Below, piece by piece: positions 18,500 to 37,097 of a stretch of DNA of 64,000 nt. The DNA lies in assembly GCA_017937095.1 (NCBI GenBank), contig JAGBEG010000012.1, positions 168,101 to 232,100 of the forward strand, in the 5' to 3' direction. The stretch's first letter is position 1; each line of letters starts with the position of its first letter. Below the pieces are notes generated by a model. It worked only from the letters and a program-made list of their open reading frames with translations, was not told the DNA's origin and did no database searches. The position numbers and the translations under genes are program-made. The stretch comes from Roseburia sp. (GTDB taxonomy: Bacteria; Bacillota; Clostridia; Lachnospirales; Lachnospiraceae).

Positions 18500-19918
18500 T
18501 TATAAGCTCCTCCTTCCTCTCGCCGCTGCCATTTTCACGGGTTGCTCTGCCTTTCCTGCATTTTTGCGCACGCCCTTGCTTACCGGGTCATAATGGTTTC
18601 GGTACAGGTCGTTTCCCCGCTTTTTCTCCGCTACCTTTCCGTCTTCTCCATAAAGCTCGTAATACCTATCCGGATTTAAGGAGGTCAGCATTGACTTTCC
18701 GCCGTATACATCCACGGTATCTGCTTTATCTACCCACAAATAGCGCACATCTTTTCCCCATGTGCCAGGTACTCGCGTTTTCACCGCCTGCTCTGTCTCT
18801 TCGCAAATGATTTCCTTGGATATGGTAATATCCAGATTATTCTGCGTACTCCGGTCCGCTGCAGTCTGATATTTCCTGCCACTCGTCTCAAATGTGCCTG
18901 CATTCCAGCCTTTTGTTTTATGTATTTCCGAAGCCTTGATCTTTTGTGGCTGCTTCTTTCCTGTCGGATCCTCCATTACGACCTCTGTGTCCTTCGCCAG
19001 ATATACCGTTCGCATTCCGCCTTCTTCCGGCTTTTTATCAAGCGGCGGAACGATTGCAGCCTTAGGCACCCATATGCTTCCCCACTTCTTCGGATCGCCA
19101 TCTGCATTCATGCCCTTTCCGGCAATCTTTACATGCGTTTCCGTTTCTTCCGTAATCTGGCTCTTCCCGTTCTCTGCATCATAAATAAATTGGAACTGCA
19201 TGGGATGATTCTCTTTTAACTGCTCGGACCGCTCCCTGAATTGGATAATATCCGCAAGGTTGTCCACCTTTTCATGATCCACCCCTGCGGTTTGCTCTTT
19301 TGGGTTCTTTTCCTCCTGATGCTTCTGCACATACTCCGAGAAATTGATAATCTTTTCTTCGTAATCCTCCCCAAAACGTTCCTTCATATCGGCTTCAAAC
19401 GCTTCTTCCGGCACTGTGGCGCCTACATTTTCCGCAAATTCCTCCATTGTTTCAGCATGATTATTCTGATCAAAAGAACGCTCCGACTCCTCTTCTGACA
19501 TACCGTTCTTCACATCTTCTTGCATTTGCTTTTTCTTTTGTCTTGCTAAAAGCTCCTGAAACATAGCCAGATCCTTCTCCATGATAACAATCTCCACGGA
19601 ACCCTTCTTCCCTGATTTTAGCGGTCGAAATGCATGATAGAGGATTCCGTATTTTTTTAACATTGAATTCATCTCATGATATGTTTTTTCATCTAATGTT
19701 ACCGGAATCGTCGCCTGATCGCCCGCACGCGCCTTGAAGTTTTTCATATTCGTCTGCCCCATTGCTTTTTTGTATGGCGCATCCTTAATTGTACATAAAA
19801 GGAATTTCAGCAGTTGCAATGCTACTTTCACAGCATCCTTTGACAACTGATATGCCAGCTTGATTCCTTCAACTTCCATGTAGATTACCTGCATGGCATC
19901 TCCGCCCTGCCCTGTCAT
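18500..19918 (-). CDS. PcfB/DUF3801-like protein with long C-terminal extension
   Basis: GQTNMKNF...LKKYGILY motif; located between the relaxase region and virD4. Confidence 0.6.
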   Translation of the reverse strand: MTGQGGDAMQVIYMEVEGIKLAYQLSKDAVKVALQLLKFLLCTIKDAPYKKAMGQTNMKNFKARAGDQATIPVTLDEKTYHEMNSMLKKYGILYHAFRPLKSGKKGSVEIVIMEKDLAMFQELLARQKKKQMQEDVKNGMSEEESERSFDQNNHAETMEEFAENVGATVPEEAFEADMKERFGEDYEEKIINFSEYVQKHQEEKNPKEQTAGVDHEKVDNLADIIQFRERSEQLKENHPMQFQFIYDAENGKSQITEETETHVKIAGKGMNADGDPKKWGSIWVPKAAIVPPLDKKPEEGGMRTVYLAKDTEVVMEDPTGKKQPQKIKASEIHKTKGWNAGTFETSGRKYQTAADRSTQNNLDITISKEIICEETEQAVKTRVPGTWGKDVRYLWVDKADTVDVYGGKSMLTSLNPDRYYELYGEDGKVAEKKRGNDLYRNHYDPVSKGVRKNAGKAEQPVKMAAARGRRSL

Positions 19919-21102
19919 TCGTTCTCCTCCTTCTCATCTTCCTGTTCTCGTGCATCCTCTGTATCAATGACCTCCCTCTCCATTCCCGGCATGTCCTCGA
20001 CCAACGTATCACACAGCTCCATCAGCTCCTCCTCCGGGAGATCCTTCTCCAGAAGTGAGAAAATGAACTCATTTGTCATACCGCCATTCATTAAGCGCCG
20101 GATTGCAAGTATCTTGTCTTTTCTGTATTTTTTCTCTACCATGATCTCAAAGATCTTCCCGACCTGCGTCTCCGCATCCATTTTCTCGAACGCTTTTTTC
20201 ATATGTCTGCTTAATAGAATCTGAAAAAAAGAAACGCGTTCGCCATGCGCTTTCTCCGCCTCTCTCAGTTCCGTCACAAGAATTCTGTTATCAAGAAATT
20301 CTTTTCCGTCCGGAAATTCCGGAACCTCATGCTGCTCGTCCCCCTTCTTTTCCTGCACATTTGCTTCTTTCTCTTTCTGCTCCCCCTGCCTCTCCTTGAA
20401 TTCAACATCCTTCGGCTGCTCTGGCAGATACTCCTTATCATTTTCTTTTATCCGTTCCCTGCCACTTGCCATTCCTCCCATAAATTTCTGCATTGCTGTA
20501 AGCACAGCATCCGTCACAGCCTTTGCCATGTCAGCTTCCATTCTGTCTGCGGGCGCACTCTGCCTGTCCTGCTTAACTTCTTTCTCCTGCGGCTGCACCT
20601 TTATCTGCGATTGTGTTTCTTCCCGAAACTCACCTATACACCCTTCTTCTCTCAGTGTAAGTCCTATTCTGCGCTGACAAAGTTCAAATACAGTTTCCGA
20701 TTCCTTTAACAACTGCCGCATCACTTCTACCCGAATCCCCGCCTTGTATGCCTCTGTAATTTCATTCACATACAATGTTCCGGAAATCCTGTTCTTCTGC
20801 AGCGCTTGTACTGCAAGCTGCACCCATTCAACAGACGCTGCATAACATAAAAGAATACCCATAGATGCTACGGAAGCGGAATCCTGAAATCTCGGATACA
20901 ACAAATATTCATATACGTCTTTTCTGATTCCTCCCATATTTAATACGAAATTCAGCAGCACTTCCTGCGCTTCTGATGCCGGCGTAGAATTTCCCGTCGC
21001 TTTATCATATGCACATTCGACAGAGCTTCTGGCTCGCTCTCTCCACTCCTCAGAATTAAGTTCCTTCAATGTCAATACTTCCATTCTCTCTTCCTGCAGC
21101 AT
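19915..21102 (-). CDS. Hypothetical protein
   Basis: 395-aa ORF coupled within the mobilisation operon. Confidence 0.6.
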   Translation of the reverse strand: MLQEERMEVLTLKELNSEEWRERARSSVECAYDKATGNSTPASEAQEVLLNFVLNMGGIRKDVYEYLLYPRFQDSASVASMGILLCYAASVEWVQLAVQALQKNRISGTLYVNEITEAYKAGIRVEVMRQLLKESETVFELCQRRIGLTLREEGCIGEFREETQSQIKVQPQEKEVKQDRQSAPADRMEADMAKAVTDAVLTAMQKFMGGMASGRERIKENDKEYLPEQPKDVEFKERQGEQKEKEANVQEKKGDEQHEVPEFPDGKEFLDNRILVTELREAEKAHGERVSFFQILLSRHMKKAFEKMDAETQVGKIFEIMVEKKYRKDKILAIRRLMNGGMTNEFIFSLLEKDLPEEELMELCDTLVEDMPGMEREVIDTEDAREQEDEKEENE

Positions 21103-21105
21103 GTA

Positions 21106-22725
21106 TTATCGCTCCCTTCCTTTATTCCTTTTCCGATTTCTGTTTTGCTCATTTTCTTCTCTTTCTGCTCCATGCTGTTCCAAGCTCTCTAGCTCCGCTT
21201 CCTCCGCCGGAGCATATTCCTCCATTACTTTCTGGTACTCTTCACAAAGTTCGCTTAGTGCTTCCAGCTTCTTTTTCTCCTCCCGAAGCTGCCTTAAACT
21301 GTCTCTTTTCTTTTGTGTACACCCTTCCAGATATATTTCCAGTTCCTCTTTTCCATATGGAAACGCCGAAACTTTTTCCTTCAGCCGCTCATAAGCCTTT
21401 GCCTCCTCATCAAATACTGTCTTCCCTTCCTGTGCTAACAGGTATGCTCCTTCCAGTTCTGCAAGTTTCTCATAATCTGCAACCATATTTTCATATGGTT
21501 TTCTATCTTTCGCCTGCTCCTTAAGCTCTCCTTTAAGTCCTTCCACCTTTTTCTGCAGTTCTGCCATATCCGCTTCTATCCCTGCCTTTGTCCGGTAATC
21601 ATGCTCTATAAGCAGGCTTATCTGATATTCCAGTTTGCGAATACTCTTGATCCGCTCTCGCGTTTCCCGATAGGTAGGACGTTTTCTGTGTCCCGAAAGG
21701 ATGCCCAATCGGTACAATCGTGCATATTGCTTCCTGAGATACTCATTATCTGTTTTGTAACATATGCGCACATGATAGAATCTTCCCGTAAGCAGATAAA
21801 ATGTATCCTGCTCTCCGGTCTGTGCTTCTCTTGGCGGGAGTTCCTTATGATATGCGTTAATACGCCGTTTTATCATATCGAGCGTGTAATCCGCTCCAAG
21901 TGTATGCGTTCTCCGAAACCTTTTCATGCCATAGGTTCTAAGTTTCATGTAGGTACCGTATTTCTCACTTTTTCCATATCCGATTTCATATCCCAGATCT
22001 TTTAATTTCTCTTCAAATTCCGCAAAGTTCTCACTGCTCCCGATGAGCATGTCAATATCATCCCGGATATAGTCCGACATGGAATAGCCGTCTTTCCCCT
22101 CCTTCTGATAATGGTAATTACCGTGTGCCTTTCGCCCGCGCCCTGTACTCTTCATCCGCTTCTTCTCCTGACGCTCTTTCGCATATTCCGCGATTGATAT
22201 GCCTGTATCCTCCTCTAAGGTATGAAGCCCCTGTTCTTTACAGAGCTGATCCATAAGCGGCTGTATATTTCTTTCCCACTCATCAGCCGGAAAATGATAT
22301 TTTCGACCAGTCTTATAATTCACGCTGTTAAATACAATGTGCGTGTGCATATGTTCTGTATCCAGATGTGCGCTGTAAACCGCCTCATAATCCGGCAAAT
22401 ACTTCTCACAAAACTGCCTCGTAATCTCCATCGCAGTCTCCGGGGATACCGCCTCCTTTGGACTCCATGAAATTACAATGTGATACCCAAGCCGATCATG
22501 TTCGTAGCCTTGTGACTGTGGATCCGGCTCCTTACCATATTGCCGTTTCGTCTCTATCATCTCTTTTAATGCTGTTTCGCATCTGCAGTTTAAGCTCGCC
22601 GTATAAAGTCCTCCCAGCGTCTTCTCCGGTTTCAAAATATATTTAATGGCATGTCTTAAATGTGCATAAATTCCTCTTCCGGTTCCTGGATGGATGTGTG
22701 GCTCTACAACATGTACGATTGCCAT
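21106..22725 (-). CDS. MOB_P-type relaxase
   Basis: GYHIVISW...AHLDTEHMHTHIVFNSV HUH motifs. Confidence 0.9.
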   Translation of the reverse strand: MAIVHVVEPHIHPGTGRGIYAHLRHAIKYILKPEKTLGGLYTASLNCRCETALKEMIETKRQYGKEPDPQSQGYEHDRLGYHIVISWSPKEAVSPETAMEITRQFCEKYLPDYEAVYSAHLDTEHMHTHIVFNSVNYKTGRKYHFPADEWERNIQPLMDQLCKEQGLHTLEEDTGISIAEYAKERQEKKRMKSTGRGRKAHGNYHYQKEGKDGYSMSDYIRDDIDMLIGSSENFAEFEEKLKDLGYEIGYGKSEKYGTYMKLRTYGMKRFRRTHTLGADYTLDMIKRRINAYHKELPPREAQTGEQDTFYLLTGRFYHVRICYKTDNEYLRKQYARLYRLGILSGHRKRPTYRETRERIKSIRKLEYQISLLIEHDYRTKAGIEADMAELQKKVEGLKGELKEQAKDRKPYENMVADYEKLAELEGAYLLAQEGKTVFDEEAKAYERLKEKVSAFPYGKEELEIYLEGCTQKKRDSLRQLREEKKKLEALSELCEEYQKVMEEYAPAEEAELESLEQHGAEREENEQNRNRKRNKGRER

Positions 22726-22728
22726 ACT

Positions 22729-22968
22729 TTATCTGGATCGTGCCGGTCGCTTTTCCTGCACCTGATTTTCCTTCTCAAACTGTGTTCTGCACTCTCTTTC
22801 TGTCTGTTCCACCCTTTCCTTAATCTGTGTCAAATAAGTGTAATCCAGACTTCCTTCCAAAAATCCCTTTCCAAGCATCGCCGCAATCTCATTTTCCACA
22901 CCTGCCATCCGCTCTATGCTCTCGGATTTCTCTAATTGTTCTAACAGTTCTTCCATACGGTCGTTCAT
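22729..22968 (-). CDS. Small hypothetical protein
   Basis: Coupled between mobC and the relaxase. Confidence 0.6.
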   Translation of the reverse strand: MNDRMEELLEQLEKSESIERMAGVENEIAAMLGKGFLEGSLDYTYLTQIKERVEQTERECRTQFEKENQVQEKRPARSR

Positions 22969-23303
22969 CTTTTATTTCCTTCCTTTCTCTCATCCGCACA
23001 AAGTTCCATGATTTTTTGCATCATGGCAAACAATTTTTTCTTTTCATACTCTGTGTAATAATGCATATTTACATTTCTTACAATCTGATTGATATTGTTA
23101 CCGATTCGATTGATTTCGTAAGCCAACTGTTTTTTTGCCAGGAATTCTTCCTGCGTCTGTACCGAAACCGTTTTTCCCATGTCCTCATCAATCAGTCTAC
23201 GGATATATTCCGAATATTTAATGCCATACATTTCGCATCGGCTTTTTGTATGTTCCCATTGTGCCTGCGTAATACGGACATTTTTATGAATACTTTTATC
23301 CAC
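22965..23303 (-). CDS. mobC: MobC relaxosome accessory protein
   Basis: RHH-like N-terminus; EINRIGNNINQIVR motif. Confidence 0.85.
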   Translation of the reverse strand: MDKSIHKNVRITQAQWEHTKSRCEMYGIKYSEYIRRLIDEDMGKTVSVQTQEEFLAKKQLAYEINRIGNNINQIVRNVNMHYYTEYEKKKLFAMMQKIMELCADERKEGNKR

Positions 23304-23333
23304 TGTGTTTTATCCCTTCGCCGACATTTTGAT

Positions 23334-23864
23334 TCATCTGCCTCTTTTCGCCGCTCTCTCAGGCAGTTCTTTCCTTAAAACTTGAGATTCCGATAGTGTC
23401 TGCTTTCTCATATTCTCTCCACAGAAAAGCAGATATGCCTTAAAAATGTCTTTCATCTCTTTAGGCAGCGTATGTTCACTCAATGTCTGTCCGCACATAT
23501 CTATCCTTGCAATCGCTTCCTTTTGCTTCGCTTCGTCCGCTATCTGTTCCTGGTATTGATCTGTCACATCAAACAGCTCCGTAACCACCGCTTCAAGCAT
23601 TTGCATCTGTTCCTTGTTAAGTATCTTTCCCTGCCTTGCCACCCCGTCCAGATATGCGGACATTGCCACTGCGCTTTTGATAATCATTGCGTTATTTTTT
23701 GACTTTCTTGTATAATTCGAAAATGCTCCGGCGACGTTCTCATAATCCGTCTCCTTTAATGGCTGTCTTGCGAAACTATAATATGCTGTCAACTCCACCA
23801 TATTTTTCATTACCTTGCACATCCAATCCCTCTGACTCTTTGATAGGACAATGAATTCGTTCAC
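23334..23864 (-). CDS. Hypothetical protein, first gene of the mob operon
   Basis: GTG start at 23864 with RBS GGAGGTG (ORF track start 23909 lies inside the promoter). Confidence 0.6.
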   Translation of the reverse strand: MNEFIVLSKSQRDWMCKVMKNMVELTAYYSFARQPLKETDYENVAGAFSNYTRKSKNNAMIIKSAVAMSAYLDGVARQGKILNKEQMQMLEAVVTELFDVTDQYQEQIADEAKQKEAIARIDMCGQTLSEHTLPKEMKDIFKAYLLFCGENMRKQTLSESQVLRKELPERAAKRGR

Positions 23865-23889
23865 TTTTCTCACCTCCAGTCCGCTCTCT

Positions 23890-23969
23890 ATTATGAATAT
23901 TTCGCACACTCATTTCGACGGAATAAAAGAAAAGTTTTCGTTCTATTTCTTTCTTTTAGGAAAAGGTCA
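23890..23969 (-). promoter_or_regulatory. Conserved transfer-operon promoter, copy C (mob operon)
   Basis: -10 CATAAT (23890-23895); box AAGAAAAGTTTT at 23927 and TTTCTTTTAGGAAAAGGTCA. Confidence 0.7.
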
Positions 23970-24080
23970 ATCTCTTGCATTTGGGCACAAAAAAAACAGC
24001 TCTACGACTATTCGCCGTAAAGCTGTTTTTGACTTCGCGACACAATGTCGCGAAGTTCGCCGCGCAAGCAAATGCAAATT

Positions 24081-24575
24081 TCATCTACCTCGTTTCCTAT
24101 TTCTGTTTTCTCTTACAAATTCCTCACTCGGTTGACCATTTTCTTCCTCACCTACATATTCTGGTTTCCGTACTTTCAAATATGTCAATACTGATTCTCT
24201 GCATGCATCAACCGCCTCCATGCATTCTTCCAAATCCTCTTTATCTACCGTTATACTTTCATCCCCTGGATATCTTGTATTAAAATAATATCCATCCACT
24301 TTTTTTATGCTGCCTTCATCACAGCAGAATCCCGGTACTTCCTGTTTTATATACTTCAATAATTTCCGTATGTTGTGTGTCTTCATCACGCTCTCGTATT
24401 GCGGTTTTCTGCAATCCGAATCTAACTCAATTAAATACTTCAAGTACTTCTCACATATTCCCTGCGCTATGGCTGCCATACTATTCGCCACAAATCCATT
24501 TTCATACGCGGCTTTAAAAAACGTATAATCATTTTCTGCAAAATCAAAATACGTTACTAATTGCTTCTTTTCCAT
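24081..24575 (-). CDS. HEPN domain protein
   Basis: CEKYLK, KTHNIRKL, TRYPG motifs; paired with the upstream MNT. Confidence 0.85.
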   Translation of the reverse strand: MEKKQLVTYFDFAENDYTFFKAAYENGFVANSMAAIAQGICEKYLKYLIELDSDCRKPQYESVMKTHNIRKLLKYIKQEVPGFCCDEGSIKKVDGYYFNTRYPGDESITVDKEDLEECMEAVDACRESVLTYLKVRKPEYVGEEENGQPSEEFVRENRNRKRGR

Positions 24576-24910
24576 ATATTTCTCCCCTCTTTTCTTATAT
24601 TTCTATGATAAAACTGATTACTCTCTTTCCATGTATCTCCAAATGTAACCTTTAAATCTACATCCACACCGCTAAAATCTTCCGCATCAGTCACATCGCT
24701 TTTTAATTCCAGAATTTCAGAATGATATTCTCTGCCCTTTTCATCCAAAACCAAAAACAGATCAATGTCGCTCGAATATTTGTAATCGCCACGTGCATAA
24801 CTTCCATACAGGTACAGTTCTTTTACGAACTCTGCCAAAGGTGAAGTACGAATTACCCTGACCGCATATTCAAGCGCTTTTTCATGACGGTCTATTTTTT
24901 CTGCATCCAT
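24557..24910 (-). CDS. Minimal nucleotidyltransferase (MNT)
   Basis: LYGSYARGD..YSSDIDL; start moved to ATG 24910. Confidence 0.85.
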   Translation of the reverse strand: MDAEKIDRHEKALEYAVRVIRTSPLAEFVKELYLYGSYARGDYKYSSDIDLFLVLDEKGREYHSEILELKSDVTDAEDFSGVDVDLKVTFGDTWKESNQFYHRNIRKEGRNIWKRSN

Positions 24911-24982
24911 TCTACGATTCTCCTTCTGATTATCAACTTCACGACACAATGTCGCGAAGTTACATAGCGAGACTTCTTCCTA

Positions 24983-25699: not shown

Positions 25700-25934
25700 G
25701 TGTTTTCCCCCTGCAACCCTTACGTATCAAGTTTTACCTCATTGCTTATATTATACCAGACGCCTTGGGTTTTTCAACGCCATATTCCATAGCTTTTCTC
25801 ACTTTTGCCACTTCACGACATACTGTCGCAAAGTTCACCCTATCCCATTAACTTCGCGACAGCGTGACGCGAAGTTAAACTCTTATATCCAACTTCACGA
25901 CACGCTGTCGCGAAGTTGTCAGCGTAAGCATCGC

Positions 25935-26010
25935 CGGGGTATTAGGGGTGTCCCCTAACAAGTGCATTTGTATTACAAATGCGTATCTTGCCATTGATGG
26001 CAATCAATGG
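25935..26010 (+). other. Putative oriT
   Basis: Inverted repeats TTAGGGG-3-CCCCTAA and GCATTTGT-3-ACAAATGC followed by TATCTTG^CCA (25984-25993), matching the MOB_P nic consensus YAWCYTG. Confidence 0.65.
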
Positions 26011-26097
26011 TTTCACACAAAACCCTGCGGATAAAAAGAAAATCCTGCAACTTCACGACACGCTGTCGCGAAGTTCCAATAACCGTTCCGGACTCCC

Positions 26098-26140
26098 TCA
26101 AAAAAACAGGACTGCATCACGATTGTGTCACAGTCCTGTC
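26098..26140 (-). terminator. Rho-independent terminator of the Rpn-like gene
   Basis: ACAGGACTG...CAGTCCTGT stem followed by a T-run on the minus strand. Confidence 0.7.
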
Positions 26141-27943: not shown

Positions 27944-29068
27944 TTAGTCAGTCGGTAAACTCCGTGGATTTGTAAGAAGCAATAGCTTCTCCAGTGCTTC
28001 CATATCATATTCCCTTTGATTAAAATTGTTAAATTTATTATTATTCTTGTATTTCTTCTCTCCGGCGTCGCCCTTGCGCTGCGCCGCTTTGGGGTGCAGC
28101 GCCTGGTACAGCAGTTCCTCAATCACCGGATCCTTTTCTACCCGTTCGTTATTGTTTTCCGACCGTTCCTCACTCGGACTCTCCTTTGCTTTCTGCTGCT
28201 TATCAGTTCCCGACCACTCCTCACGGAGCAGCTTATGTATCAGTTTGATATTAATAATCTTATACTTTATCCATGACTTTCCCTTATTAAGGATTTCTAG
28301 ACTTTTTTTGACAGCGCGATCTATTAAGGACACAAGCTGCTTCTTTTCCACCTCTGCTTTCGCGTCGTACTGTCTGAACAGATTATAGATTTCCTGTTCT
28401 CCTGCCCCAGGTTCCTTGATCCGGCTTCTCCGCAGCACGACCTCGACTGCTTTTTCCCGGAAGCGTTCTGCCTCTTCCTTCGTTCCTGCCTTCCTGTAAA
28501 TAATTTTCTTAGGCTCTATATAATACTTTCCATCCTTTATTCCAATAGAAAATAGTGGTTTTAACGACATCAGATAAGACCGCATCACCCGGCTACTGAC
28601 GTCAAAGCGTTTCTGATATCCATTTTCCTTATCATAGAATTTTTTCACACCAATTTCAAAGTAGCCTTTTCCGGAAAAGGTGATGATCATAAGCTTCATC
28701 GCCAAAAGCTTCGCTCCTGCTTTGAGCTCCTGAAATTCTTTGCAGAAAAATATATTATGATTTGTGTTAATATAACCCGCACGATTATATTCTTCACCGT
28801 TGTATGCATTTCCTACGATTGTGATATCGCAATCACTATAATCATTCTTCTCACACCTTATGAACCCTTTGTTTTCCAGTGATTCCTTTACGTCATAATA
28901 TCCCTGTATACTCATATTTGTTGCATCACAAACATCTTTATAATGCACTCCTGTTACCCTGCCGGTGAGGTCCTGAAACATGGAAATATAAAGCAGAAAA
29001 GTAATTTCGTTTGCTGTGCATTTCTGTTCAATCATCCGGTCAACTATGCTGTTTTTTATTTTCTGCAA
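27944..29068 (-). CDS. Putative replication initiator (winged-helix)
   Basis: N-terminal wHTH-like pattern; C-terminal NKFNNFNQREYDMEALEK recalls DnaD/phage replication protein tails; adjacent to iterons; TTG start. Confidence 0.55.
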   Translation of the reverse strand: MQKIKNSIVDRMIEQKCTANEITFLLYISMFQDLTGRVTGVHYKDVCDATNMSIQGYYDVKESLENKGFIRCEKNDYSDCDITIVGNAYNGEEYNRAGYINTNHNIFFCKEFQELKAGAKLLAMKLMIITFSGKGYFEIGVKKFYDKENGYQKRFDVSSRVMRSYLMSLKPLFSIGIKDGKYYIEPKKIIYRKAGTKEEAERFREKAVEVVLRRSRIKEPGAGEQEIYNLFRQYDAKAEVEKKQLVSLIDRAVKKSLEILNKGKSWIKYKIINIKLIHKLLREEWSGTDKQQKAKESPSEERSENNNERVEKDPVIEELLYQALHPKAAQRKGDAGEKKYKNNNKFNNFNQREYDMEALEKLLLLTNPRSLPTD

Positions 29069-29101
29069 CTATATTTCCCTCCCCTCTCTGCTTTTTTTAA
29101 A

Positions 29102-29209
29102 TGGTGGCGGTCGGATTCGAACCGACAACCTCTTACTTTCCACCTTGGTTACAAGCAGCTTTATACTTGTCCAGGAATCGAACCTGGCAGCTGTGTACCA
29201 TACACCACC
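29102..29209 (-). ncRNA. tRNA-like RNA with two T-arms (non-canonical, no encoded CCA)
   Basis: 7-bp acceptor-like stem GGTGGTG/CGCCACC+A; T-arms CCAGG-TTCGATT-CCTGG and GTCGG-TTCGAAT-CCGAC. Confidence 0.65.
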
Positions 29210-29216
29210 TATATAT

Positions 29217-29549
29217 TCATTCTGCCATTATCTGCGTCAAATCCTCAATAAGCTCCTCGGAGTCTCCTGCATATATACCACTTACAAGCTTGCGGGCAAC
29301 CATCTTTCGGTATTCCTGTTTCGGAACTTCCGGCACGTAGTATGTGTATCTGCCCTTCTTGTATGCCGACAGAAAACCTTTCTTTCTGAGCCGCCCCAGA
29401 AACGTTGATACTGTCTGTGGTTTCCATGATTTTCCATAACGCTCATTTACCTTCGTCATTGTTTCTTCCAGATCGGGAGCTTCCGTCGCATCCCACACAA
29501 CCATCATCACCAGTTCCTCACTCTCCGGTAATTTTCTTATTTCTGCCAT
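29217..29549 (-). CDS. BlaI/MecI/CopY family regulator
   Basis: LPESEELVMMVVW...WKPQTVSTFLGRLRKKG. Confidence 0.85.
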   Translation of the reverse strand: MAEIRKLPESEELVMMVVWDATEAPDLEETMTKVNERYGKSWKPQTVSTFLGRLRKKGFLSAYKKGRYTYYVPEVPKQEYRKMVARKLVSGIYAGDSEELIEDLTQIMAE

Positions 29550-29773
29550 AGATTTTTCTCCTCACCTTCTTCAATCGACATATTTCCATCGCTGCTTCTC
29601 CTAATATTCCATACACTATTTACCCATCCTCTTTCAGCATTCCAAGCACTAATTAATAAATCTAATTCTAATAGTTTGCGTTTATACTCCCGAAACAATA
29701 TTGCAATAACTATTCCCTCAAATACTGTGCCTAATCCCAAGAGCAAACATACTATTACCCACACGTTCAGCAT
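29537..29773 (-). CDS. Small membrane protein
   Basis: ATG 29773 with RBS GAGGTG; one TM helix. Confidence 0.5.
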   Translation of the reverse strand: MLNVWVIVCLLLGLGTVFEGIVIAILFREYKRKLLELDLLISAWNAERGWVNSVWNIRRSSDGNMSIEEGEEKNLWQK

Positions 29774-29911
29774 AATACTCACCTCAAAATACTTATTAAT
29801 CAATGAGCTTCCTTTTCTCCTTCTACAATCCCGCCTGTCCAAACATCACTCTGCTTTTTTGAATAGCTGTTCAAGTTGATAAATAATAACGTTTTTCATC
29901 TTTCATTTACA

Positions 29912-30961
29912 TTAATTTTCCGGCACTATTCCCGGATAATCCCCAATATCCATCTGACCATTCAACTGCCGCTCTTCTTTTTCTGCATCATTCTCCCGCT
30001 TTGCCCATTCATCGAGCAGTTGCAATATAACCTGTTCTATGTAATCTGGTGTCGCCTCAACCGGGAAATACTGCCTCAAACAGGAATCCTTCAGCGTTAT
30101 ATTTTTCTTTACAGGCTTTTCTGCCTTTTCGCGCTTTGACATGATTCGATCTACCGCCGCCTCGTCCAATTTGCCCTGCTCCCTAAGATCTCCCATGGCT
30201 GCGAGCTGCGCTTTATCCGGTAAAATATGATGTTCCTTGTAATATTCAAGAATGTACTCCTGTTCCTCGTGTCCAAAAAAAGATAAAAGGTAGCCAATCC
30301 CTACAGTCATTTTTTCTTCATCCACGATATCTAACAATTCTGAAATAAGATAAGTAAGCCTGATATAACGCTGCACCGTTCTTACTCCATCTCCATTTTT
30401 CTCACCGATTGCATTCATTCCTCCATTGTCCTTTGCTGCGTCCTTCATTTCTTCATTTTGAAGCAAGTCTGTGCGCTTCCCCTGACGACGCAATGCTTCT
30501 GCCTTCGTTCGATAAGCCCAGGCTTTTTCACTGGGTAATAGCACCTCTCTTCTATTATTAGAGTCCACCATAATGACAGCAGCTTCGTCATCATCAATCT
30601 CTTTTATGTAAGCGGGTACTTCCGTCAAGCCGGCAAGTCCTGCAGCATAATTCCGACGATGTCCTGCGATGATCTCATATTCTCCCAGCTTATCCTTGTC
30701 TGGTCGTATTAATAATGGTTCCAGAATTCCCAGCTCCCGAATACTATCCGACAGCTCCAGCATCTTTTCATCCTCCATAACCCGAAAGGGATGCCCATAA
30801 AAAGAAGAAAATGCATGCAGGGCGCTCCTTTTTACCATGACCCACGATGATTTGCTTTGCTCATTCACTGTAGCTTTCTTTTCCTCTTCTCTGGCTTCAT
30901 ACGCCGGAATATTCTGAAACATACCGCCAAAAATATCCGCGTTTGTCACATTTTTTGCCAT
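29912..30961 (-). CDS. parB: ParB/Spo0J family partition protein
   Basis: SIRELGILEPLLIRP...YEIIAGHRR; start probably ATG 30961. Confidence 0.9.
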   Translation of the reverse strand: MAKNVTNADIFGGMFQNIPAYEAREEEKKATVNEQSKSSWVMVKRSALHAFSSFYGHPFRVMEDEKMLELSDSIRELGILEPLLIRPDKDKLGEYEIIAGHRRNYAAGLAGLTEVPAYIKEIDDDEAAVIMVDSNNRREVLLPSEKAWAYRTKAEALRRQGKRTDLLQNEEMKDAAKDNGGMNAIGEKNGDGVRTVQRYIRLTYLISELLDIVDEEKMTVGIGYLLSFFGHEEQEYILEYYKEHHILPDKAQLAAMGDLREQGKLDEAAVDRIMSKREKAEKPVKKNITLKDSCLRQYFPVEATPDYIEQVILQLLDEWAKRENDAEKEERQLNGQMDIGDYPGIVPEN

Positions 30962-30966
30962 TTCCG

Positions 30967-31725
30967 CTACCTCCCGATAATTTCTTCGCATACCTTCCAG
31001 TAATCCTTCGCCGTGCTGCAGGCAGGATTATATTCCTGCACGCTCATCCGCGCTGACTGGGCTTTTTTGCAATCCTCACACTCACGGATTTTCGTATCAA
31101 ATACAGTGGTATCAAACATCTTTAACACCTCGGGCAGTCCACTGCTGATTTCCCGGCAAAGAGTTGTGCGCTCCTTATACTTATTTAGAAGCACACCTGT
31201 CACACGCAAACTGCGGTTTGTATATTTTTTCGTGGCATTTATGGTAACATACAAATCGTTGATTCCCTCCATCCCGTAGCGATCACATGTTACCGGTATT
31301 ACTACTTCATCTGCGAATGTAAGCGCATTTGATAACATGCATCCCAGGCTCGGCGGAGTATCTACAACAATAAAATCATATTGATCTCTGATATCCTCAC
31401 AGGCATCCCGCAACGTAAACAGCCTTGTCGCATCATCCGGAAACTTCGTCTCCGGATTCTTCAGAAGCTTGTCCGATGCAATTACATCCAGCTTCTCCAT
31501 ATGCTGAATACATTCTTTCGCACTCTCATGCTCAAAAAGCAGATCATAGAGCGTTGCCACGCCTTCCACCTGTGCCCGGCAGGTATCTGTGGAATTACAC
31601 TGCCCATCCGTATCAATCAACAACACCCTCTTTCCCAGTTCTGCCAAATCAAACGCGATATTCACCGCTGTAGTCGTTTTCCCAATTCCACCCTTCTGAT
31701 TCGCTACTGCAATTACTCTGCTCAT
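30967..31725 (-). CDS. parA: ParA family ATPase
   Basis: NQKGGIGKTTT, IDTDGQCN, VDTPP motifs. Confidence 0.92.
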   Translation of the reverse strand: MSRVIAVANQKGGIGKTTTAVNIAFDLAELGKRVLLIDTDGQCNSTDTCRAQVEGVATLYDLLFEHESAKECIQHMEKLDVIASDKLLKNPETKFPDDATRLFTLRDACEDIRDQYDFIVVDTPPSLGCMLSNALTFADEVVIPVTCDRYGMEGINDLYVTINATKKYTNRSLRVTGVLLNKYKERTTLCREISSGLPEVLKMFDTTVFDTKIRECEDCKKAQSARMSVQEYNPACSTAKDYWKVCEEIIGR

Positions 31726-31763
31726 ATGCTTTTCTCCTTTTTCTCCGTCTTATTTATTTTCCT

Positions 31764-33446
31764 TTATCTGCGTTTTCTTGTGTTCCTGAACCGCTGCACA
31801 CGCTCCGATCCAGAGGCTGATATCCTCTCATGAGTTTTCTGTACATTCTGAACAATTACATCTAACGTTCCATGATTATAAACTCCATAAAACAGATTGT
31901 AGCGCTGCATCATCTGTCCTACTTCTTTATCCTTGGCAATACTCTCCTCATAGGAATGTATTCTTCCTTCCTCCTCGAATTTTCCGTCCCGCTGTACCAG
32001 AAAGTTGAAATTATCATACTGTGCATTTAAGTGTTCAAGCATTTCTTCATATTCCGGGGTCAGTTCCTTGTTATAGACTGCATTTAAAAGAATCGATGCA
32101 TCTGTAACTATGAAATCTACTTTTCCATATAACCGGTCAATCCGATGAAGCTGCTCTTTCAATATTTCAAGCTGATGTTCTTCACTTCCATCCAATAACT
32201 CATAGTTTTCCTCCCACACCAGATCCTTGGCGTATTCTGACACATATTCCACCACATATCCCAGCTTCTTCAATTCCTCTACAATGTGAAAGCACGCCGT
32301 TGACTTCCCTGCGCCTGGTCCTCCAAACGCATTTATGACCAATGAATGGTGCTTTCCCTTTTCCCGCAATTCCCCCATTAACCTCTGATGCTGTTCTATA
32401 AAATCCTTCCATACATTTCCTGTATCTGGCTTTCCTTCCTGTTTCTGAACCGCCTCTGTCTTCCGGTATATCAAATATTCGTTCCAATCCTTGCAGCCGG
32501 TTTCTTTCGGAACAATATCTGTATGAGTCTGATAGCCCTCCAGCATATATTTCTCTAATAAGCCCGTGGTTCCCTTCTGCTCGTTTCCATACAGTGCTTC
32601 CATGCCCGCCTTGTCATTATCCAGGCAAAAGCCAATTTCTTTAATATGCCGATAATCCTTTAGAAATTGCACGAGCGGATTATCAGCCACCATGCCAAGC
32701 ACAAGCTTGTTGCTCTCATAGTCTCCTGTTATATCCAGATAAGACATCAGATCAATATTTGCCTCAAAGACCTTTAACACGCCGCTTTCCTCATTCACGA
32801 TGTTAATTCCGTAGTTTTTATCATTTCCAGCCACATCCCCGCGATATTTCTTACCATAAATGTCCGCTGTTCCGCGCTTGGTGGCATAACGTACTACACC
32901 ATCCTTGTCTTTGCCAAGGAATACCAGATTGTGATGTTCCTTTTCTTCGTATAAGATTTTCAAATCCTTGACAAAATAATCGACGACCTTCTGCGATAAT
33001 CCCCTTGTCTTCATTAAGTAGGCATATGCCCTTCTGTAATTCCCTTCTGCCATCGCCTCCGGCAAAATGAATTCCTGACGCTCTTTCTGTGGGATTTTCA
33101 CTGCCTGATTTCTTAACGTTCCCTCTTCCACATGATTCTTCCACGATGTATCCCGCGCCGAAATTCCCTGAAATTCCAGAAGGATGCCAATCGCATCTGA
33201 AATAGATTCCACACCGCAAAACTGCATGAGAAAATCAACCTGCGAACCGCCTTCTGCCCCTTTCGTTCCTGCTTTCGACCAGCGATACCACGTCCTGTCA
33301 TTGTATATCCGGACAGAATCATGCTCCGTCAGCGTAAAAAGCTGATTTCCTACGTGCCTGGGATGATATCCATAATGTGCAGCAAGCGCCGTCAGGCTTA
33401 CCTCTTTTGCCTGAAGAATCTGTTCATCTGTAAAACGATATGTCAT
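31764..33446 (-). CDS. DUF3991/Toprim primase-like protein fused to a C-terminal P-loop (NadR/kinase-like) domain
   Basis: VFEANIDLMSY, CLDNDKAG, KDWNEYL; then GGPGAGKST and VTDAS. Confidence 0.75.
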   Translation of the reverse strand: MTYRFTDEQILQAKEVSLTALAAHYGYHPRHVGNQLFTLTEHDSVRIYNDRTWYRWSKAGTKGAEGGSQVDFLMQFCGVESISDAIGILLEFQGISARDTSWKNHVEEGTLRNQAVKIPQKERQEFILPEAMAEGNYRRAYAYLMKTRGLSQKVVDYFVKDLKILYEEKEHHNLVFLGKDKDGVVRYATKRGTADIYGKKYRGDVAGNDKNYGINIVNEESGVLKVFEANIDLMSYLDITGDYESNKLVLGMVADNPLVQFLKDYRHIKEIGFCLDNDKAGMEALYGNEQKGTTGLLEKYMLEGYQTHTDIVPKETGCKDWNEYLIYRKTEAVQKQEGKPDTGNVWKDFIEQHQRLMGELREKGKHHSLVINAFGGPGAGKSTACFHIVEELKKLGYVVEYVSEYAKDLVWEENYELLDGSEEHQLEILKEQLHRIDRLYGKVDFIVTDASILLNAVYNKELTPEYEEMLEHLNAQYDNFNFLVQRDGKFEEEGRIHSYEESIAKDKEVGQMMQRYNLFYGVYNHGTLDVIVQNVQKTHERISASGSERVQRFRNTRKRR

Positions 33447-33449
33447 GCC

Positions 33450-33890
33450 CTACCTCTCTTTCGATTCTTTATTGATTGCCCTCATAAGTTCATCCGCCAT
33501 GTCAAGTATAAGTGTCACCGTTTCTTCACCTGCTATCTCCATGATCTGCTCAAACCGCTTACCATTTGTAACACTTGCACCTTCTCTGTTGCATGTTTCC
33601 GATACGTCCGCCAGATCAATCCCGTCAATATCCAGGAACTGTCTGACTGGTACTTTCAGTGCCGTCGCAATTTTAATCAGCGCTTTTAAGCTTATCCTGC
33701 ATTTTTCTGTCTCTGCCTTTGATATGCAGCTAACAGAAAGATTCGACAGCTCTGCTAACTTTGATATTGATAGCTCCTGCTTTATCCGTTCTTCACGTAT
33801 CCGGCTTCCAACTTCTGCGAGGCAGGCTTCCATCTTCTCATCATCATAGGCAAGTGACTCCACACTAATTCGACTTTGCTGTTCTTCCAT
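33450..33890 (-). CDS. XRE-family HTH regulator
   Basis: IREERIKQELSISKLAELSNLSVSCISKAE; paralog of 7488-7874. Confidence 0.85.
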   Translation of the reverse strand: MEEQQSRISVESLAYDDEKMEACLAEVGSRIREERIKQELSISKLAELSNLSVSCISKAETEKCRISLKALIKIATALKVPVRQFLDIDGIDLADVSETCNREGASVTNGKRFEQIMEIAGEETVTLILDMADELMRAINKESKER

Positions 33891-33893
33891 CTG

Positions 33894-34271
33894 CTACCTC
33901 ACTTTTTTCTTGTTATGCTTCTCCTGATCTAGCTGCTTCTGCGGCTCATTCTGCTTTTTCTGCTCTTCCTCCTTCCGCTGCTCTTCTTCCCGCTGCCACT
34001 GTATGAACTCCCAATGCTCCCGTACAGCCTCCGCAATCGCTCTGCCTGCCCGCTTTCCCATCACTGCCGAAAGACGCTCAGTATTATAAAATGTATCTGT
34101 CGGTGTTCCTGCCTCCGTGCTGATCTGCCAGTTTGGAATCGCAATATACCATCCATTAATATGACGCCCATAAATCACAAGATAATTGTTCCCATTCCAA
34201 TCAATGCTCGCCTCATGTGTTTCTGTAGTATCATAGCTGTGTCTTATCTCTGCCTTTCCAATGCTCCCCAT
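33894..34271 (-). CDS. Hypothetical protein (DUF6618-like)
   Basis: YGRHINGWYIAIPNW...DTFYNTERL recalled from Lachnospiraceae mobile-element proteins. Confidence 0.5.
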   Translation of the reverse strand: MGSIGKAEIRHSYDTTETHEASIDWNGNNYLVIYGRHINGWYIAIPNWQISTEAGTPTDTFYNTERLSAVMGKRAGRAIAEAVREHWEFIQWQREEEQRKEEEQKKQNEPQKQLDQEKHNKKKVR

Positions 34272-34274
34272 AGA

Positions 34275-34472
34275 CTACTCCTTTCTTTCCTTGTTTTTAT
34301 TTGTTTTCTTTTCTTCCCGAAACCTCTTGTATTTCAGATATTGAATTGCGCCACATAAACCCAGAATGGCACATACCAATATAATGTTTATGACATCAAT
34401 AATCTTAATCGTTGTCGCCATTTTTCCTCTTTTCCGCGTAATAGCGCTGTTCTTCGTCATATTTTTTCTCAT
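34275..34472 (-). CDS. Small membrane protein
   Basis: One TM helix; coupled to the downstream gene. Confidence 0.45.
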   Translation of the reverse strand: MRKNMTKNSAITRKRGKMATTIKIIDVINIILVCAILGLCGAIQYLKYKRFREEKKTNKNKERKE

Positions 34473-34575
34473 ATATAAACATCACACTGTATGGTATCGT
34501 TTCCTTCAAACCACATTCTTTTGAAAATTTAATTCTTGCAGCCTCATATGCACAATCAATTTCCCACGGTCCAGA

Positions 34576-35043
34576 CTAATCCAGTTTTGATTTTTCTCTC
34601 CATTCAAAATACTTTCTTCTTAACGCATACTGTCCGCTTTGTCTTTCAAAATCATCCGTCTCTTGCTCCATATGCCATAACACGCGTTCTAATGATTGTT
34701 TTTCCTTATCGTCCATTTCGAATATGCAGAATAAATCCGGGTACTTCAAAACAACATACGGGTGCACATATGCAGTTCCATTCCTTGATCTCCAGTTATC
34801 TGTCAAACACTCCAGAAGATAATCTTTCATATACCGGGCTATCTCTATTTCGAAAAAGAATTTGTCGGCTTCCTTGCAAGCCATTAATAAGCAGATTTGA
34901 ATATAGATGAGCTGCTGTGATAAAAGCAGCAATTCTTTTCTTCTTTTCACTTGTTGCCGCTCTGAATTCTTGACTTTACAAAACCATACTCCTACAATTA
35001 TTAAAAACAGCAATAATATGAAGTTAATCATTATCAATATCAC
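34576..35043 (-). CDS. Hypothetical protein with N-terminal TM helix
   Basis: RBS GGAGGTG. Confidence 0.55.
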   Translation of the reverse strand: MILIMINFILLLFLIIVGVWFCKVKNSERQQVKRRKELLLLSQQLIYIQICLLMACKEADKFFFEIEIARYMKDYLLECLTDNWRSRNGTAYVHPYVVLKYPDLFCIFEMDDKEKQSLERVLWHMEQETDDFERQSGQYALRRKYFEWREKSKLD

Positions 35044-35048
35044 CTCCT

Positions 35049-35827
35049 ATGAAAGGACAAATTATGCTCTTAAAAAAAATATTTCACCAGACACCAAACC
35101 AACTCCCCGAAAATCAAAGGTTGCTGCAAATCCATACATACTACCTGAATTTTGCCAAGGATATCCTAGCATCTCCATTTTACATGCAACCCCAAAATGA
35201 ACTAATGAAGCTAAATGCCCTAAACAAGTTAATAAAAGTATTGACACTTGATATCGAGAATCATATTCTATTGCATACTATCAGTGTTGAACACGATTAT
35301 CCATTTAGCTCAACACTATTTCTCGACAGTCCAGTTTGTCCCAAATGTGGACGTTTGAATAACTGCACCTTAAATCGTAAAAAAATCGTTAAACCTATTG
35401 CCATTGATATATCTATGCATCCTACAATTTCCTGCCCCTGGAACAAGACTCGACTAATGAATGCTTTTGGAAGTATTGGTGTTTCCGTTGATAATCCCTA
35501 TATTTTTGACAAAAACAATCACTTTTCCGGTGAACTATATGCACCATTGAATCTTACAAAAATACATAATGGCTATCATTCCTCTGCCTGTGGCATATAT
35601 GATACAAATGCTATATATTATCCAGAGTATTTCTGCGATTTTTATGATTTCTACGATGAAATCTATTTTGATGGAATGTCATTCCGTCACAAAACTGTAG
35701 GTCTGTCATAGAAACGCCTGAACCAAAATCTTTAGGTACGATATACGAAATCGGTCGCTTACTTTATGAACACAATCTATCTCTATTGACACTGCTAAAA
35801 ACAGAAATTATTACCACAGATCTATAA
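35049..35827 (+). pseudogene. DUF6710-like gene interrupted by a one-base frameshift near 35691-35694
   Basis: ORF stops at 35711, but the -1 frame stays open to TAA 35827 with CRSVIETPEPKSLGTIYEIGRLL; AT-rich, opposite strand to neighbours. Confidence 0.55.
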
Positions 35828-35957
35828 TTATTATCCCACCATAGTCCTTGCTACCTACTCCTTTCTCTCGTGGAAGCTGCACGTACAGCAGCCTCTACGA
35901 GTTCTGACGCTTAACGAGTAACGTGTGATATAATAACCCAAGTATGAGAAAATTCCA

Positions 35958-37097
35958 TTATCTTCCCTTTCTTTGATGTCTTCTGGATTCAAATTCCTGC
36001 TGATCCTGTTCGTGTCCATCTTCCACATGTCCCGTATCTCGCTCCTCTTCCCTTTCGTTCCCCGACGTACGGATAATCTCTGCAATATCTGCCGCGAGCA
36101 TTTCCGGCATCCGATTCCAGGGCACCATCGCCTTCTGCCACGAACCATTTGTATGATTTATTCCATTCAACAGCTTAATACCACGTGCCGGCGGTTCCCA
36201 TGCGTTCAGATTCAAAGTGTAATCATCCAAAAGAAAATCCCTTTCGGTAACACCGCCCTTTATCACATCCTTTTTATCGCTCCCGCACGGCGGGAACAGT
36301 CTGTGAGCCATATCAACCTCCGGTAAATAACGGTCCAGCCACGCGTTTTTCTCCTTCAGAGCGTATGGGCTGTCACTGAGCACCGCCGAAAGAATATGTA
36401 CCTCAATATCCGGATTGTCCTTGATGATAAGCTTAACAGCCTCCACGACTGCCATCTGCGGCTGCAAGTTCTCGAAGTAGCCTTTTTCATATAACTGCTC
36501 TAATGTATCGACCTGCTTAAATTCGGCAAGTGTGCCATCCATATCAACAAAAAGCCGCTTCTTCCCTCTCTCCTGTTCCAGTTCTTCCTGTTCTAACCGC
36601 TCCAGCACATTTTCCTCTGCATAGCGGACAAATGCACGCAGTCCCAGATCCTCACAATAACTCAACGACTTACTGTCCATGGAAAGCTGAAATTCCCTTG
36701 TCTGCAGGTCATATTCATAGAAACGCTCTTTCTGCGGTGAGATCAGACAGCCGCTGCCATCCTTTTCATGATCCCACTTCCAGCCTTCCGGAAGCATGCT
36801 TGTCCGTTCATTCACATTAGCGCTAACCTTCGTCATTGAATCCGGGAAGTACACCGCTACATAATCCCGGATCAGATTAATCTCCTCCTGTGACAATCTT
36901 ACCAGCCCATCCCTTTCGCTCCAGATGCTCTCCTGCAAAAGTTCCCCTGCTTCCTCCTCCGTCCTTGCATACTTTAATGCTTTCTCGATCACTGCATATG
37001 CTGCCCGGACATCTGGCTGCATATCATCCGTTGCGAGCGCCTTGTTGACTTCCGCTGCAACCTCCCTTAGTGTTTTAAGACTCTCATCTGTTTTCAT
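35958..37097 (-). CDS. HAD-superfamily 5'-nucleotidase-like protein with N-terminal extension
   Basis: LFVDMDGTLAEF and LLDDYTLNL motifs. Confidence 0.75.
   Translation of the reverse strand: MKTDESLKTLREVAAEVNKALATDDMQPDVRAAYAVIEKALKYARTEEEAGELLQESIWSERDGLVRLSQEEINLIRDYVAVYFPDSMTKVSANVNERTSMLPEGWKWDHEKDGSGCLISPQKERFYEYDLQTREFQLSMDSKSLSYCEDLGLRAFVRYAEENVLERLEQEELEQERGKKRLFVDMDGTLAEFKQVDTLEQLYEKGYFENLQPQMAVVEAVKLIIKDNPDIEVHILSAVLSDSPYALKEKNAWLDRYLPEVDMAHRLFPPCGSDKKDVIKGGVTERDFLLDDYTLNLNAWEPPARGIKLLNGINHTNGSWQKAMVPWNRMPEMLAADIAEIIRTSGNEREEERDTGHVEDGHEQDQQEFESRRHQRKGR

Follow-up and report, generated by a model that had tools for sequence, protein, structure and literature searches.

The window analysed here is a 64,000-nucleotide stretch of a Roseburia sp. 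genome (G000:C9:168101-232100; positions below are window coordinates), and the minus-strand genes between ~2.5 and 37 kb make up an integrative conjugative element (ICE). A relaxase, a VirD4-type coupling protein (T4CP), VirB4, a cell-wall hydrolase and an integrase lie together in one block, marking it as an ICE with a type IV secretion system (T4SS) of the Gram-positive type, and the synteny of this block is kept in five further loci, L038, L040, L074, L081 and L208. On its left side the element runs ~8.4 kb past the window edge, through genes for adhesins, a DUF6674 protein and a 926-aa polyvalent protein with ArdC-N and LPD1 domains. Our subject is a feature common to many of the encoded proteins, a short, basic and usually Arg-rich C-terminal tail. 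These tails are strongly enriched in the element, are appended to complete domains, and conserve their charge across orthologues although the residues change; chromosomal homologues lack them, and tails of other types are found in elements with a T4CP of a different clade. The names of the proteins that carry them agree with Pfam (MobA/VirD2 relaxase, HEPN, Fic, PDDEXK_2 for Rpn, NT5C, DUF3991-Toprim-AAA, DUF6618, and DUF3801 for PcfB), and the genes are collected in Table 1.

Basic C-termini in the conjugative element

A tail was scored as basic if its last eight residues contained at least four Lys or Arg and at most one Asp or Glu. The reference was a greedy, non-overlapping set of 3573 open reading frames (ORFs) of at least 70 aa from the host genome, the C-termini of which are independent of the choice of start codon. 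On this measure 9/18 of the minus-strand genes of 18065-37097 encode a basic tail, compared with 136/3573 (3.8%) genome-wide (hypergeometric p=4.7e-9). Internal eight-residue windows of the same 18 proteins give an expectation of 0.38, and nine was reached in 0 of 10^6 simulations, while the N-termini show no enrichment (1/18 ICE genes, compared with 155/3573 genome-wide). The comparison of tail charge with the host proteome, put forward as a check in the original prediction, thus comes out in its favour, and the ten C-termini that it quoted are all present in the sequence as written.

The final residue is Arg in 13/25 proteins here, against 8.2% of genome ORFs, and the element contains the densest cluster of Arg-ended proteins in the genome, with 11 per 20-gene window where the runner-up has 6. 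The last 12 residues of 13 tails include 4-7 Lys or Arg, 1-6 of them Arg, with at least three Arg in 10/13. ICE tails finish in GR, RR, KR, SR or VR, an ER end being found only in the relaxase, where it is coded by a ribosome-binding site (RBS); an acidic or Ala residue at position -2, before the final Arg, is not the rule among them. The tails had been described as an acidic linker followed by an Arg-rich end, of which the second part holds; the linker, taken as at least six Asp or Glu in residues -30 to -13, is present in 7/13 tails but missing from 6/13. Elsewhere in the genome, strongly basic ends belong to membrane anchors, to a ribosomal-protein region, to enzymes and to other proteins such as V-ATPase subunit D, GerA, a permease and an SDR, all of them ordinary proteins, judged by reading their sequences, to which no acidic linker is appended.

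A confound arises wherever a gene is followed within a few bases by the start of another, since its final codons then double as the Shine-Dalgarno sequence of that second gene. The end of PcfB, which had been offered as an example of a tail, is coded by GGAAGGAGG (AGA GGA AGG AGG AGC TTA), the RBS of the following gene; it is therefore unreliable and best dropped, the orthologues ending in GRGRSI, GMGRSL and KGRGRNI. The end of the 144-aa protein upstream of virD4 overlaps the virD4 RBS (CGG AGG AGT), a downstream RBS is likewise overlapped by the relaxase in its last five residues (AAA GGA AGG GAG CGA) and by the DUF6618 protein in its last three (GTG AGG), and the 'KER' end of a helix-turn-helix (HTH) protein is RBS-coded (GAG AGG). 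Free of such overlap are the HEPN, Fic, Rpn, primase, NT5C, 191-aa, 78-aa and 926-aa proteins. When the count is limited to genes with 25 nt or more between their stop codon and the following start, 6/10 ICE-block genes have a basic tail, compared with 94/2491 genome-wide (p=4.6e-7), and across the genome basic tails are equally frequent with and without a close downstream start (3.9% and 3.8%). An artefact of RBS overlap or purine-richness is rejected as the general cause in view of these 6/10 RBS-free genes; it is accepted for PcfB, the 144-aa protein, and the ends of the relaxase, the DUF6618 protein and the HTH protein.

The five syntenic relatives were found through homologues of the HEPN and Rpn proteins, and their T4CPs are 69-80% identical to that of the window. 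Across the orthologues the basic end is kept, at a net charge of +2 to +8 in nearly all copies, with widely divergent residues; this applies to the HEPN, Fic, Rpn, primase, 191-aa, 78-aa and 144-aa proteins and to the relaxase, the end of which is basic in 6/6 family members. Most orthologues of the tailed proteins end in Arg. The HEPN tails of the six ICEs read NRNRKRGR, IRNRNRGR, SRGTRTR, HKRTLKQRMKR, NLRKHFAR and NLNRHMRR, and orthologues of the 191-aa protein end in KRAKNR, RCAKGR and QQVRGR. ParA, ParB, the Rep-like, HTH, MobC and MNT proteins, VirD4 and the membrane proteins never carry a basic tail in any of the six ICEs, in agreement with the original prediction, which named MNT, ParA/B, Rep and the core T4SS proteins as exceptions; the T4CP itself has an acidic and hydrophobic C-terminus.

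The set extends beyond the left edge of the window, where the 926-aa protein ends in RRKGRGR and the DUF6674 protein in RKAKAR, and the relatives add a RadC protein (L208) and a 533-aa protein (L081). DNA methylases of L208 and L081 have no such tail. In L208 they comprise a D12-class and a C5 enzyme (L208:4487-7274), which are tailless beside tailed RadC, Rpn and HEPN proteins; if the tail marks exported proteins, the L208 methylases would not be among them.

Table 1. Genes of the element, in window coordinates, with their C-terminal features.
Feature	Position	Strand	Remarks
Cell-wall hydrolase	8830-10761		T4SS gene
VirB4	10758-13187		T4SS gene
VirD4-type coupling protein (T4CP), 674 aa	16044..18068	-	Pfam T4SS-DNA_transf, TraG-D_C, TrwB_AAD_bind
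144-aa protein directly upstream of virD4	18065..18499	-	Trp-rich basic C-terminus ..WSWKRRSKVV
PcfB-like DUF3801 protein	18500..19918	-	end ..ARGRRSL
395-aa conserved protein between relaxase and PcfB	19915..21102	-	acidic tail
MobA/VirD2-type relaxase, 539 aa	21106..22725	-	tail ..EREENEQNRNRKRNKGRER, codons about 21109-21165
78-aa protein upstream of relaxase	22729..22965	-	tail ..EKRPARSR, not RBS-coded
MobC/NikA-like relaxosome accessory protein, 112 aa	22965..23303	-	no Arg-rich tail
191-aa protein	23334..23909	-	tail ..ERAAKRGR
HEPN-domain protein, 164 aa	24081..24575	-	domain end at residue ~140; tail ..EEENGQPSEEFVRENRNRKRGR, codons about 24084-24155
MNT nucleotidyltransferase, HEPN partner	24557..24949	-	tailless in all family members
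Fic-fold protein, 238 aa	24983..25699	-	linker EPINEEMF, then tail KRKRHGR
Rpn / PD-(D/E)XK nuclease-like protein, 335 aa	26184..27191	-	tail ..EEEEMQAEEMQERRRPAKRR
Maintenance proteins: Rep-like (27944-29068), ParB (29912-30991), ParA (30967-31725)	27944..31725	-	basic tail in no relative
DUF3991-Toprim-AAA primase-like protein, 560 aa	31764..33446	-	tail ..RVQRFRNTRKRR
DUF6618 protein, 125 aa	33894..34271	-	Lys-rich end ..EKHNKKKVR
NT5C-like 5'-nucleotidase module protein, 379 aa	35958..37097	-	long acidic linker, then tail ..EQDQQEFESRRHQRKGR
Tyrosine integrase, right end of ICE	40879..42111	+	

The genes for the MobC-like, 78-aa, relaxase, 395-aa, PcfB and 144-aa proteins constitute the Dtr block. 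The accessory and maintenance genes run from MNT-HEPN to the NT5C-like gene, with the HTH gene between those for the primase and the DUF6618 protein. Orthologues of the MobC-like protein in L038 and L040 are annotated as NikA-like/MobC.

Homologues with other tails, and the coupling protein

Alignments with tailless homologues put the tails past the end of the domain, so that any signal lies outside the folded part of the protein. HEPN homologues (72 clusters) are alike up to residue ~140 and then show four types of end: none, in forms of 141 aa; Arg-rich, in the closest relatives; ..[DE]LPxKPKxK..L; and acidic (..DYDDWER, ..DDFDL). Homologues of the Fic-fold protein end in ..EEMFKRKRHGR, in ..EFYRKKVKSIEPKL, in ..DWDEQER or ..EDLEL, or are tailless (207-226 aa). 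Within the Rpn family, Arg-rich ends (RRTPQRRR, GRRPQHRR, FPGRGRGR and others) are confined to a subclade at least 58% identical to the ICE copy, and ~80 more distant members end in ..LYKEYNLID or similar. For the NT5C-like module (residues ~179-343), modules of ~60% identity are found in proteins of 200-3724 aa, which have RRPGRRR-type, ..[ST]PKL or acidic ..E-R ends; hundreds of multi-domain proteins have such a module embedded in them, as is typical of the polyvalent proteins of conjugative elements.

The claim that the tails extend beyond the folded domains is upheld by these alignments and has to be qualified for the Fic-fold protein, in which the linker ..EPINEEMF (residues ~211-230) is modelled by AlphaFold2 (AF2) with a predicted local distance difference test score (pLDDT) of ~90, packed against the domain, and only the last ~8 residues are floppy. 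Arg-tailed and PKL-tailed homologues share the linker, conserved as P-x-S/N-x-E-E-[MF]-[FY], and tailless ones lack it; going by the model, it may belong to the appended module as a second part with a structure of its own. The acidic class of ends, found on HEPN, Fic and NT5C-like homologues (members include P0049, P0055, P0071, P0136, P0150, P0321 and P0323), takes the form ..[WFY]-[DE]-x-E-R, or acidic residues followed by a hydrophobic one (as in ..DDFDL and ..EDLEL). An acidic-tailed HEPN locus, L004, has no T4SS gene within 10 kb; an acidic-tailed Fic, at L122, belongs to a conjugative element that also encodes VirB4, SSB, RecJ and a PARP-like protein, and only some of its neighbours have acidic ends. 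The ends of this class resemble the acidic tip of SSB.

The comparison with orthologues outside the ICE, also proposed at the outset, likewise favours the prediction. A tailless HEPN protein (P0042) is encoded between an ABC transporter and leuA, and a tailless Rpn (P0195), 71% identical to the ICE copy, is found among ispD, pth, mfd and aroA; both are thus chromosomal. A tailed Rpn (P0204) resides in the syntenic ICE L208. For the HEPN family the genomic context was tabulated for 80 loci from species genomes, dereplicated to 50, with VirD4, a relaxase or VirB4 within 10 kb taken as the T4SS marker. A marker accompanies 4/5 basic-tailed HEPN proteins and 0/45 of the others (Fisher p=2e-5), and the fifth 'basic' case proves to be the end of a helix inside the domain rather than an extension. 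The host genome also has a second, 92% identical copy of the Fic gene (G000:C7:174653-175396); it stands alone among apparently chromosomal genes, with the tail altered to ..KRERHRK.

Tail type co-varies with the T4CP. The coupling proteins of the window and the five syntenic ICEs constitute a clade, A, that is 31-38% identical to a second clade, B, within which identities are 40-100%. Elements with clade B T4CPs (L001/L042, L043, L124/L125 and L128) have K-rich tails with Leu as the final residue. In L001 the HEPN, PcfB-like, ArdC-N and DUF5688 proteins and the relaxase all have K-rich ends finishing in L or I, PKL is the end of both the Fic and an 80-aa protein in L124, and PKL-type forms of Fic adjoin a clade B T4CP or VirB4. 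The Lys-rich class as a whole (PKL, PRL or other ends in Leu) is seen on HEPN, Fic, ArdC-N, DUF5688 and PcfB-like proteins and on relaxases, at loci L001, L042, L043, L124, L128 and L197-L207. This co-variation covers 11 loci and is correlative; a VirD4 homologue that could be matched to the Arg-rich type is present in the ICE. Relaxase homologues across 400 genomes of the order are only 28-43% identical, with heterogeneous C-termini, and are uninformative for this family.

A different comparison is provided by the host genome itself, which has at least two other T4SS/relaxase loci (G000:C7:~700000-717000 and G000:C20:~39000-47000). The soluble proteins of these elements, ParA- and ParB-like proteins included, end in ..[DE]-x-R or ..ER (..QEKER, ..RDAER, ..RDQER, ..REQSR), with no runs of Arg. 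Different elements in one host thus have different types of end, implying that the tail type belongs to the element and not to the host. This argues against a reader supplied by the host, such as a protease or the nucleoid, and for a reader encoded by the element.

A proposed C-terminal tag and its alternatives

Why should a relaxase, a primase, a nuclease and a nucleotidase end in the same way? We think the chances about even that the Arg-rich tails are an element-specific C-terminal tag for docking or translocation, read by the coupling protein, as the sequence comparisons suggest. Its carriers would be the relaxase, the HEPN, Fic-fold, Rpn and NT5C-like proteins, the Toprim primase, the ArdC/LPD1 protein and several small proteins, and its reader either the ICE's own VirD4-type T4CP or a factor bound to it. 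Reading of the tag would bring the carriers to the T4SS, from where their probable route would lead into the recipient, in company with the T-strand or beside it. Once inside, they could act before the incoming DNA is expressed, in priming, in anti-restriction, or through nuclease and nucleotidase activity directed against the defences of the recipient or against competing DNA. T4CP binding, export and a role in the recipient are what we infer from the sequences. The original prediction went as far as injection of these proteins into recipients; the part of it that concerns a shared, T4SS-linked tag is supported by the tailless chromosomal homologues, by the HEPN contexts and by the match with T4CP clade, with delivery itself the conditional part. 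Several of the tagged families (relaxase, primase, ArdC, polyvalent modules) overlap with classes known or proposed to be transferred.

A broader proposal, of which we are a little less confident, is that elements of gut Firmicutes use interchangeable C-terminal tags, Arg-rich and ending in Arg, Lys-rich and ending in PKL, or acidic and ending in ER or hydrophobic residues, with each type matched to a T4CP clade and defining the set of proteins that is injected. If this is true, the proteins delivered by the present ICE would include the enzymes relaxase, primase, Rpn nuclease and nucleotidase, along with its ArdC-type polyvalent, HEPN and Doc-like Fic-fold proteins, and the tails would be the first sequence-defined protein translocation signals, with cargo lists, for Gram-positive conjugative T4SSs.

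Several observations weigh against the tag. The evidence is correlative and comparative, from related loci that are not independent, and RBS overlap dictates several of the tails in part. For the Fic family, a contingency table of dereplicated metagenome contigs shows the same trend as for HEPN, weakly (p=0.07), with a marker set that misses other T4SS types and with many short contigs. On long contigs ~20 tailless Fic proteins have no T4SS marker, bar one beside a relaxase; a tailless Fic is also found in a relaxase-bearing mobilizable element, and a basic-tailed Fic of the type ..EKRFRK has no marker within 10 kb, its neighbours including ParAB and LPXTG adhesins. A T4CP search that covered 400 genera of the family recovered two distant relatives only (G396 and G535, T4CPs 54-61% identical), and these lack Arg-rich tails, so not every T4CP of the lineage goes with the tag. 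Nucleic acid, too, could be bound by ends as rich in Arg, Pro and Gly as RRPGRRR. The consensus of Agrobacterium substrates, R-x7-R-x-R-x-R, searched for as a regular expression, matches 0/13 tails, with R-x-R-x-R found only in the relaxase and HEPN tails.

The same element specificity would be expected if the tails recruited proteins to the relaxosome/T4CP complex, or to another hub of the ICE inside the donor, for purposes of concentration or regulation and with no passage through the channel. A possible hub is the 395-aa protein of opposite charge, the gene of which separates those of the relaxase and PcfB in all six ICEs. Its folded N- and C-terminal domains, both helical in the AF2 model, are joined by an acidic middle that is disordered and varies in length, and its end is acidic in every relative (net -2 to -7), so that we name it, speculatively, as a candidate partner of the basic tails. 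Part of this acidic end is RBS-coded, however, and the protein has no recognisable fold, with no Pfam match and nothing below E=0.8 in a Foldseek search against the PDB. Proteins such as the nuclease, the nucleotidase, HEPN and the anti-restriction-type polyvalent protein, moreover, are easier to account for in the recipient than at the relaxosome of the donor, and we regard recruitment within the donor as unlikely. A role in nucleic-acid binding appears to us distinctly unlikely. Here the tails would be non-specific appendages, Arg-rich or AT-hook-like, that tether enzymes to the ICE DNA or to the transferred strand, any transfer then being a matter of hitch-hiking, and both the richness of RRRPAKRR, RRPGRRR and RKGRGR in Arg, Pro and Gly and the fact that most tagged proteins act on nucleic acids fit such a role. 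Yet the same domains elsewhere carry acidic or PKL-type tails at the same position, which by their charge could not bind DNA, making a common docking function the more economical explanation; the tag is strictly C-terminal, with no enrichment at the N-terminus or internally; and the true DNA-binding proteins of the ICE (ParB, HTH, MobC and Rep) are untagged.

MuA carries a basic C-terminal ClpX tag, ..RRKKAI (ClpX C-motif-2), and by comparison the present tails, which are basic, unstructured and at the extreme C-terminus, might be tags for a host protease or unfoldase that keep potentially harmful enzymes of the ICE at low levels in the donor. Several tagged proteins (the nuclease, HEPN and Fic-fold proteins) could indeed be toxic. 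A host reader, however, has no need of different tail types for each ICE in one genome, nor of co-variation with T4CP clade, and the relaxase and primase are tagged as well while chromosomal homologues of the same enzymes are not, which together make degradation an improbable role. The notion that the tails have no function at all, arising instead from purine-richness of the coding strands, from overlap with Shine-Dalgarno sequences and from weak C-terminal selection, draws on the strong purine-richness of the coding strand and on the RBS-coded ends listed above. It seems to us very improbable, given that a nearby start makes no difference to the genome-wide frequency of basic tails, that the ICE block retains them in its RBS-free genes, that internal windows predict so few, and that charge is kept across diverged orthologues when chromosomal homologues are tailless.

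Known translocation systems and the putative cargo

To return to a tag read by the coupling protein, its nearest analogue is found in the substrates of the Agrobacterium VirB/VirD4 system (VirE2, VirE3, VirF, VirD2 and VirD5), where short, unstructured, Arg-rich basic C-termini likewise occur on unrelated proteins that include the relaxase, alongside a VirD4-type T4CP. Positive C-terminal charge is described as an established feature of the VirB/D4 signal (Vergunst 2005, as cited in PMC8406263). The ICE tails differ in that most finish exactly on Arg, often after an acidic stretch, and in that they belong to an ICE of a monoderm Firmicute rather than to a diderm effector translocator. As they do not match the VirB/D4 consensus, they are not members of that motif class and are analogous in logic only. 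The Bep effectors of Bartonella, together with alphaproteobacterial relaxases, offer a second parallel, that of a Fic-fold enzyme and a relaxase with positively charged C-terminal tails in a T4SS context. In Bep effectors, however, a BID domain precedes the tail; no tagged protein of the ICE has a Pfam match to this domain, the tails following linkers of only 10-60 residues, and the Fic-fold protein of the ICE lacks the catalytic His. A Glu-rich stretch in the last ~30 residues of 7/13 ICE tails recalls the E-block of Legionella Dot/Icm substrates, which is read by DotM, although here the final residues are basic, adaptors of the DotM or IcmSW type were not recognised, and the system is T4A-like and Gram-positive.

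The tagged set also recalls the protein transfer that accompanies conjugation, in which the Sog and TraC primases and ArdC are passed by conjugation systems. Conjugative elements send maintenance and establishment proteins to their recipients, and a primase and an ArdC-like protein are among the tagged proteins here. The F plasmid pED208 transfers ParA, ParB, SSB, PsiB and PsiA (PMC8406263, PMC11288057). It is precisely ParA and ParB that are untagged in the ICE, and the F-plasmid substrates have no defined simple C-terminal signal. Delivery along with the DNA has been suggested for the polyvalent proteins of phages and conjugative elements (Iyer et al. 2017, PMC5512222), and the ICE has proteins from this repertoire, in the 926-aa protein, which consists of ArdC-N (a weak match) and LPD1, and in the NT5C-like module, which recurs in giant proteins. 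In the ICE, however, the modules are mostly separate single-domain proteins, each with a tail of its own, rather than parts of one giant polypeptide.

A review of December 2025 finds it surprising that nearly all known functions of Gram-positive T4SSs are in DNA transfer, and treats protein translocation as a long-standing open question (PMC12857230); our literature search found no paper on such a C-terminal signal in Gram-positive conjugation. A tag that can be read from sequence would allow the candidate protein cargo of ICEs in gut commensals to be listed directly, would offer a simple handle for reporter fusions, and might serve as an address that directs heterologous proteins to a Gram-positive conjugation channel. 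The natural swaps, in which one domain has different tails in different ICE families and none in the chromosome, amount to ready-made constructs, and are seen in four enzyme families with loss controls. With such a tag, genes of ICEs that appear to encode toxin-antitoxin pairs, nucleases or nucleotidases would also be read differently, since in place of addiction or cargo functions they may have roles in establishment or anti-defence, exerted in the recipient ahead of expression of the DNA.

For two of the putative cargo proteins the roles as toxins are uncertain, as the Fic-fold protein has no catalytic His and the HEPN protein no R-x(4-6)-H motif. The Fic fold is itself confident, from Pfam and from an AF2 model with pLDDT 94.8 in which confidence drops only in the last ~8 residues. 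Its motif is the Doc-like QMFSDGNKR (QMFSDGNKRVAQ) and departs from the HxFx[DE]GNGRxxR of AMPylases, with Gln151 in place of the catalytic His and this Gln invariant in 41 homologues; instead of an AMPylase, the protein may be a Fic that is inactive or of a kinase-like kind. In the 164-aa HEPN sequence the R-x(4-6)-H motif is absent, the single His being H67 and the nearest Arg residues R56, ten before it, and R70, after it. The invariant residues of the family are instead A13, E14, C41, E42, Y44 and R101-Y-P-G104, and on sequence grounds a role as an RNase toxin is doubtful. The HEPN gene is paired with the overlapping MNT gene upstream, and in all six family members the tail is on HEPN and never on MNT, which fits selective tagging; delivery of HEPN without its antitoxin, as the original prediction had it, would be consistent with this but is speculative. 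The tails of HEPN (24084-24110) and the relaxase (21109-21150) share the peptide N-R-N-R-K-R in nearly the same codons (AAC AGA AAT CGG/AGG AAA ..), which could reflect convergence or a small recombination event.

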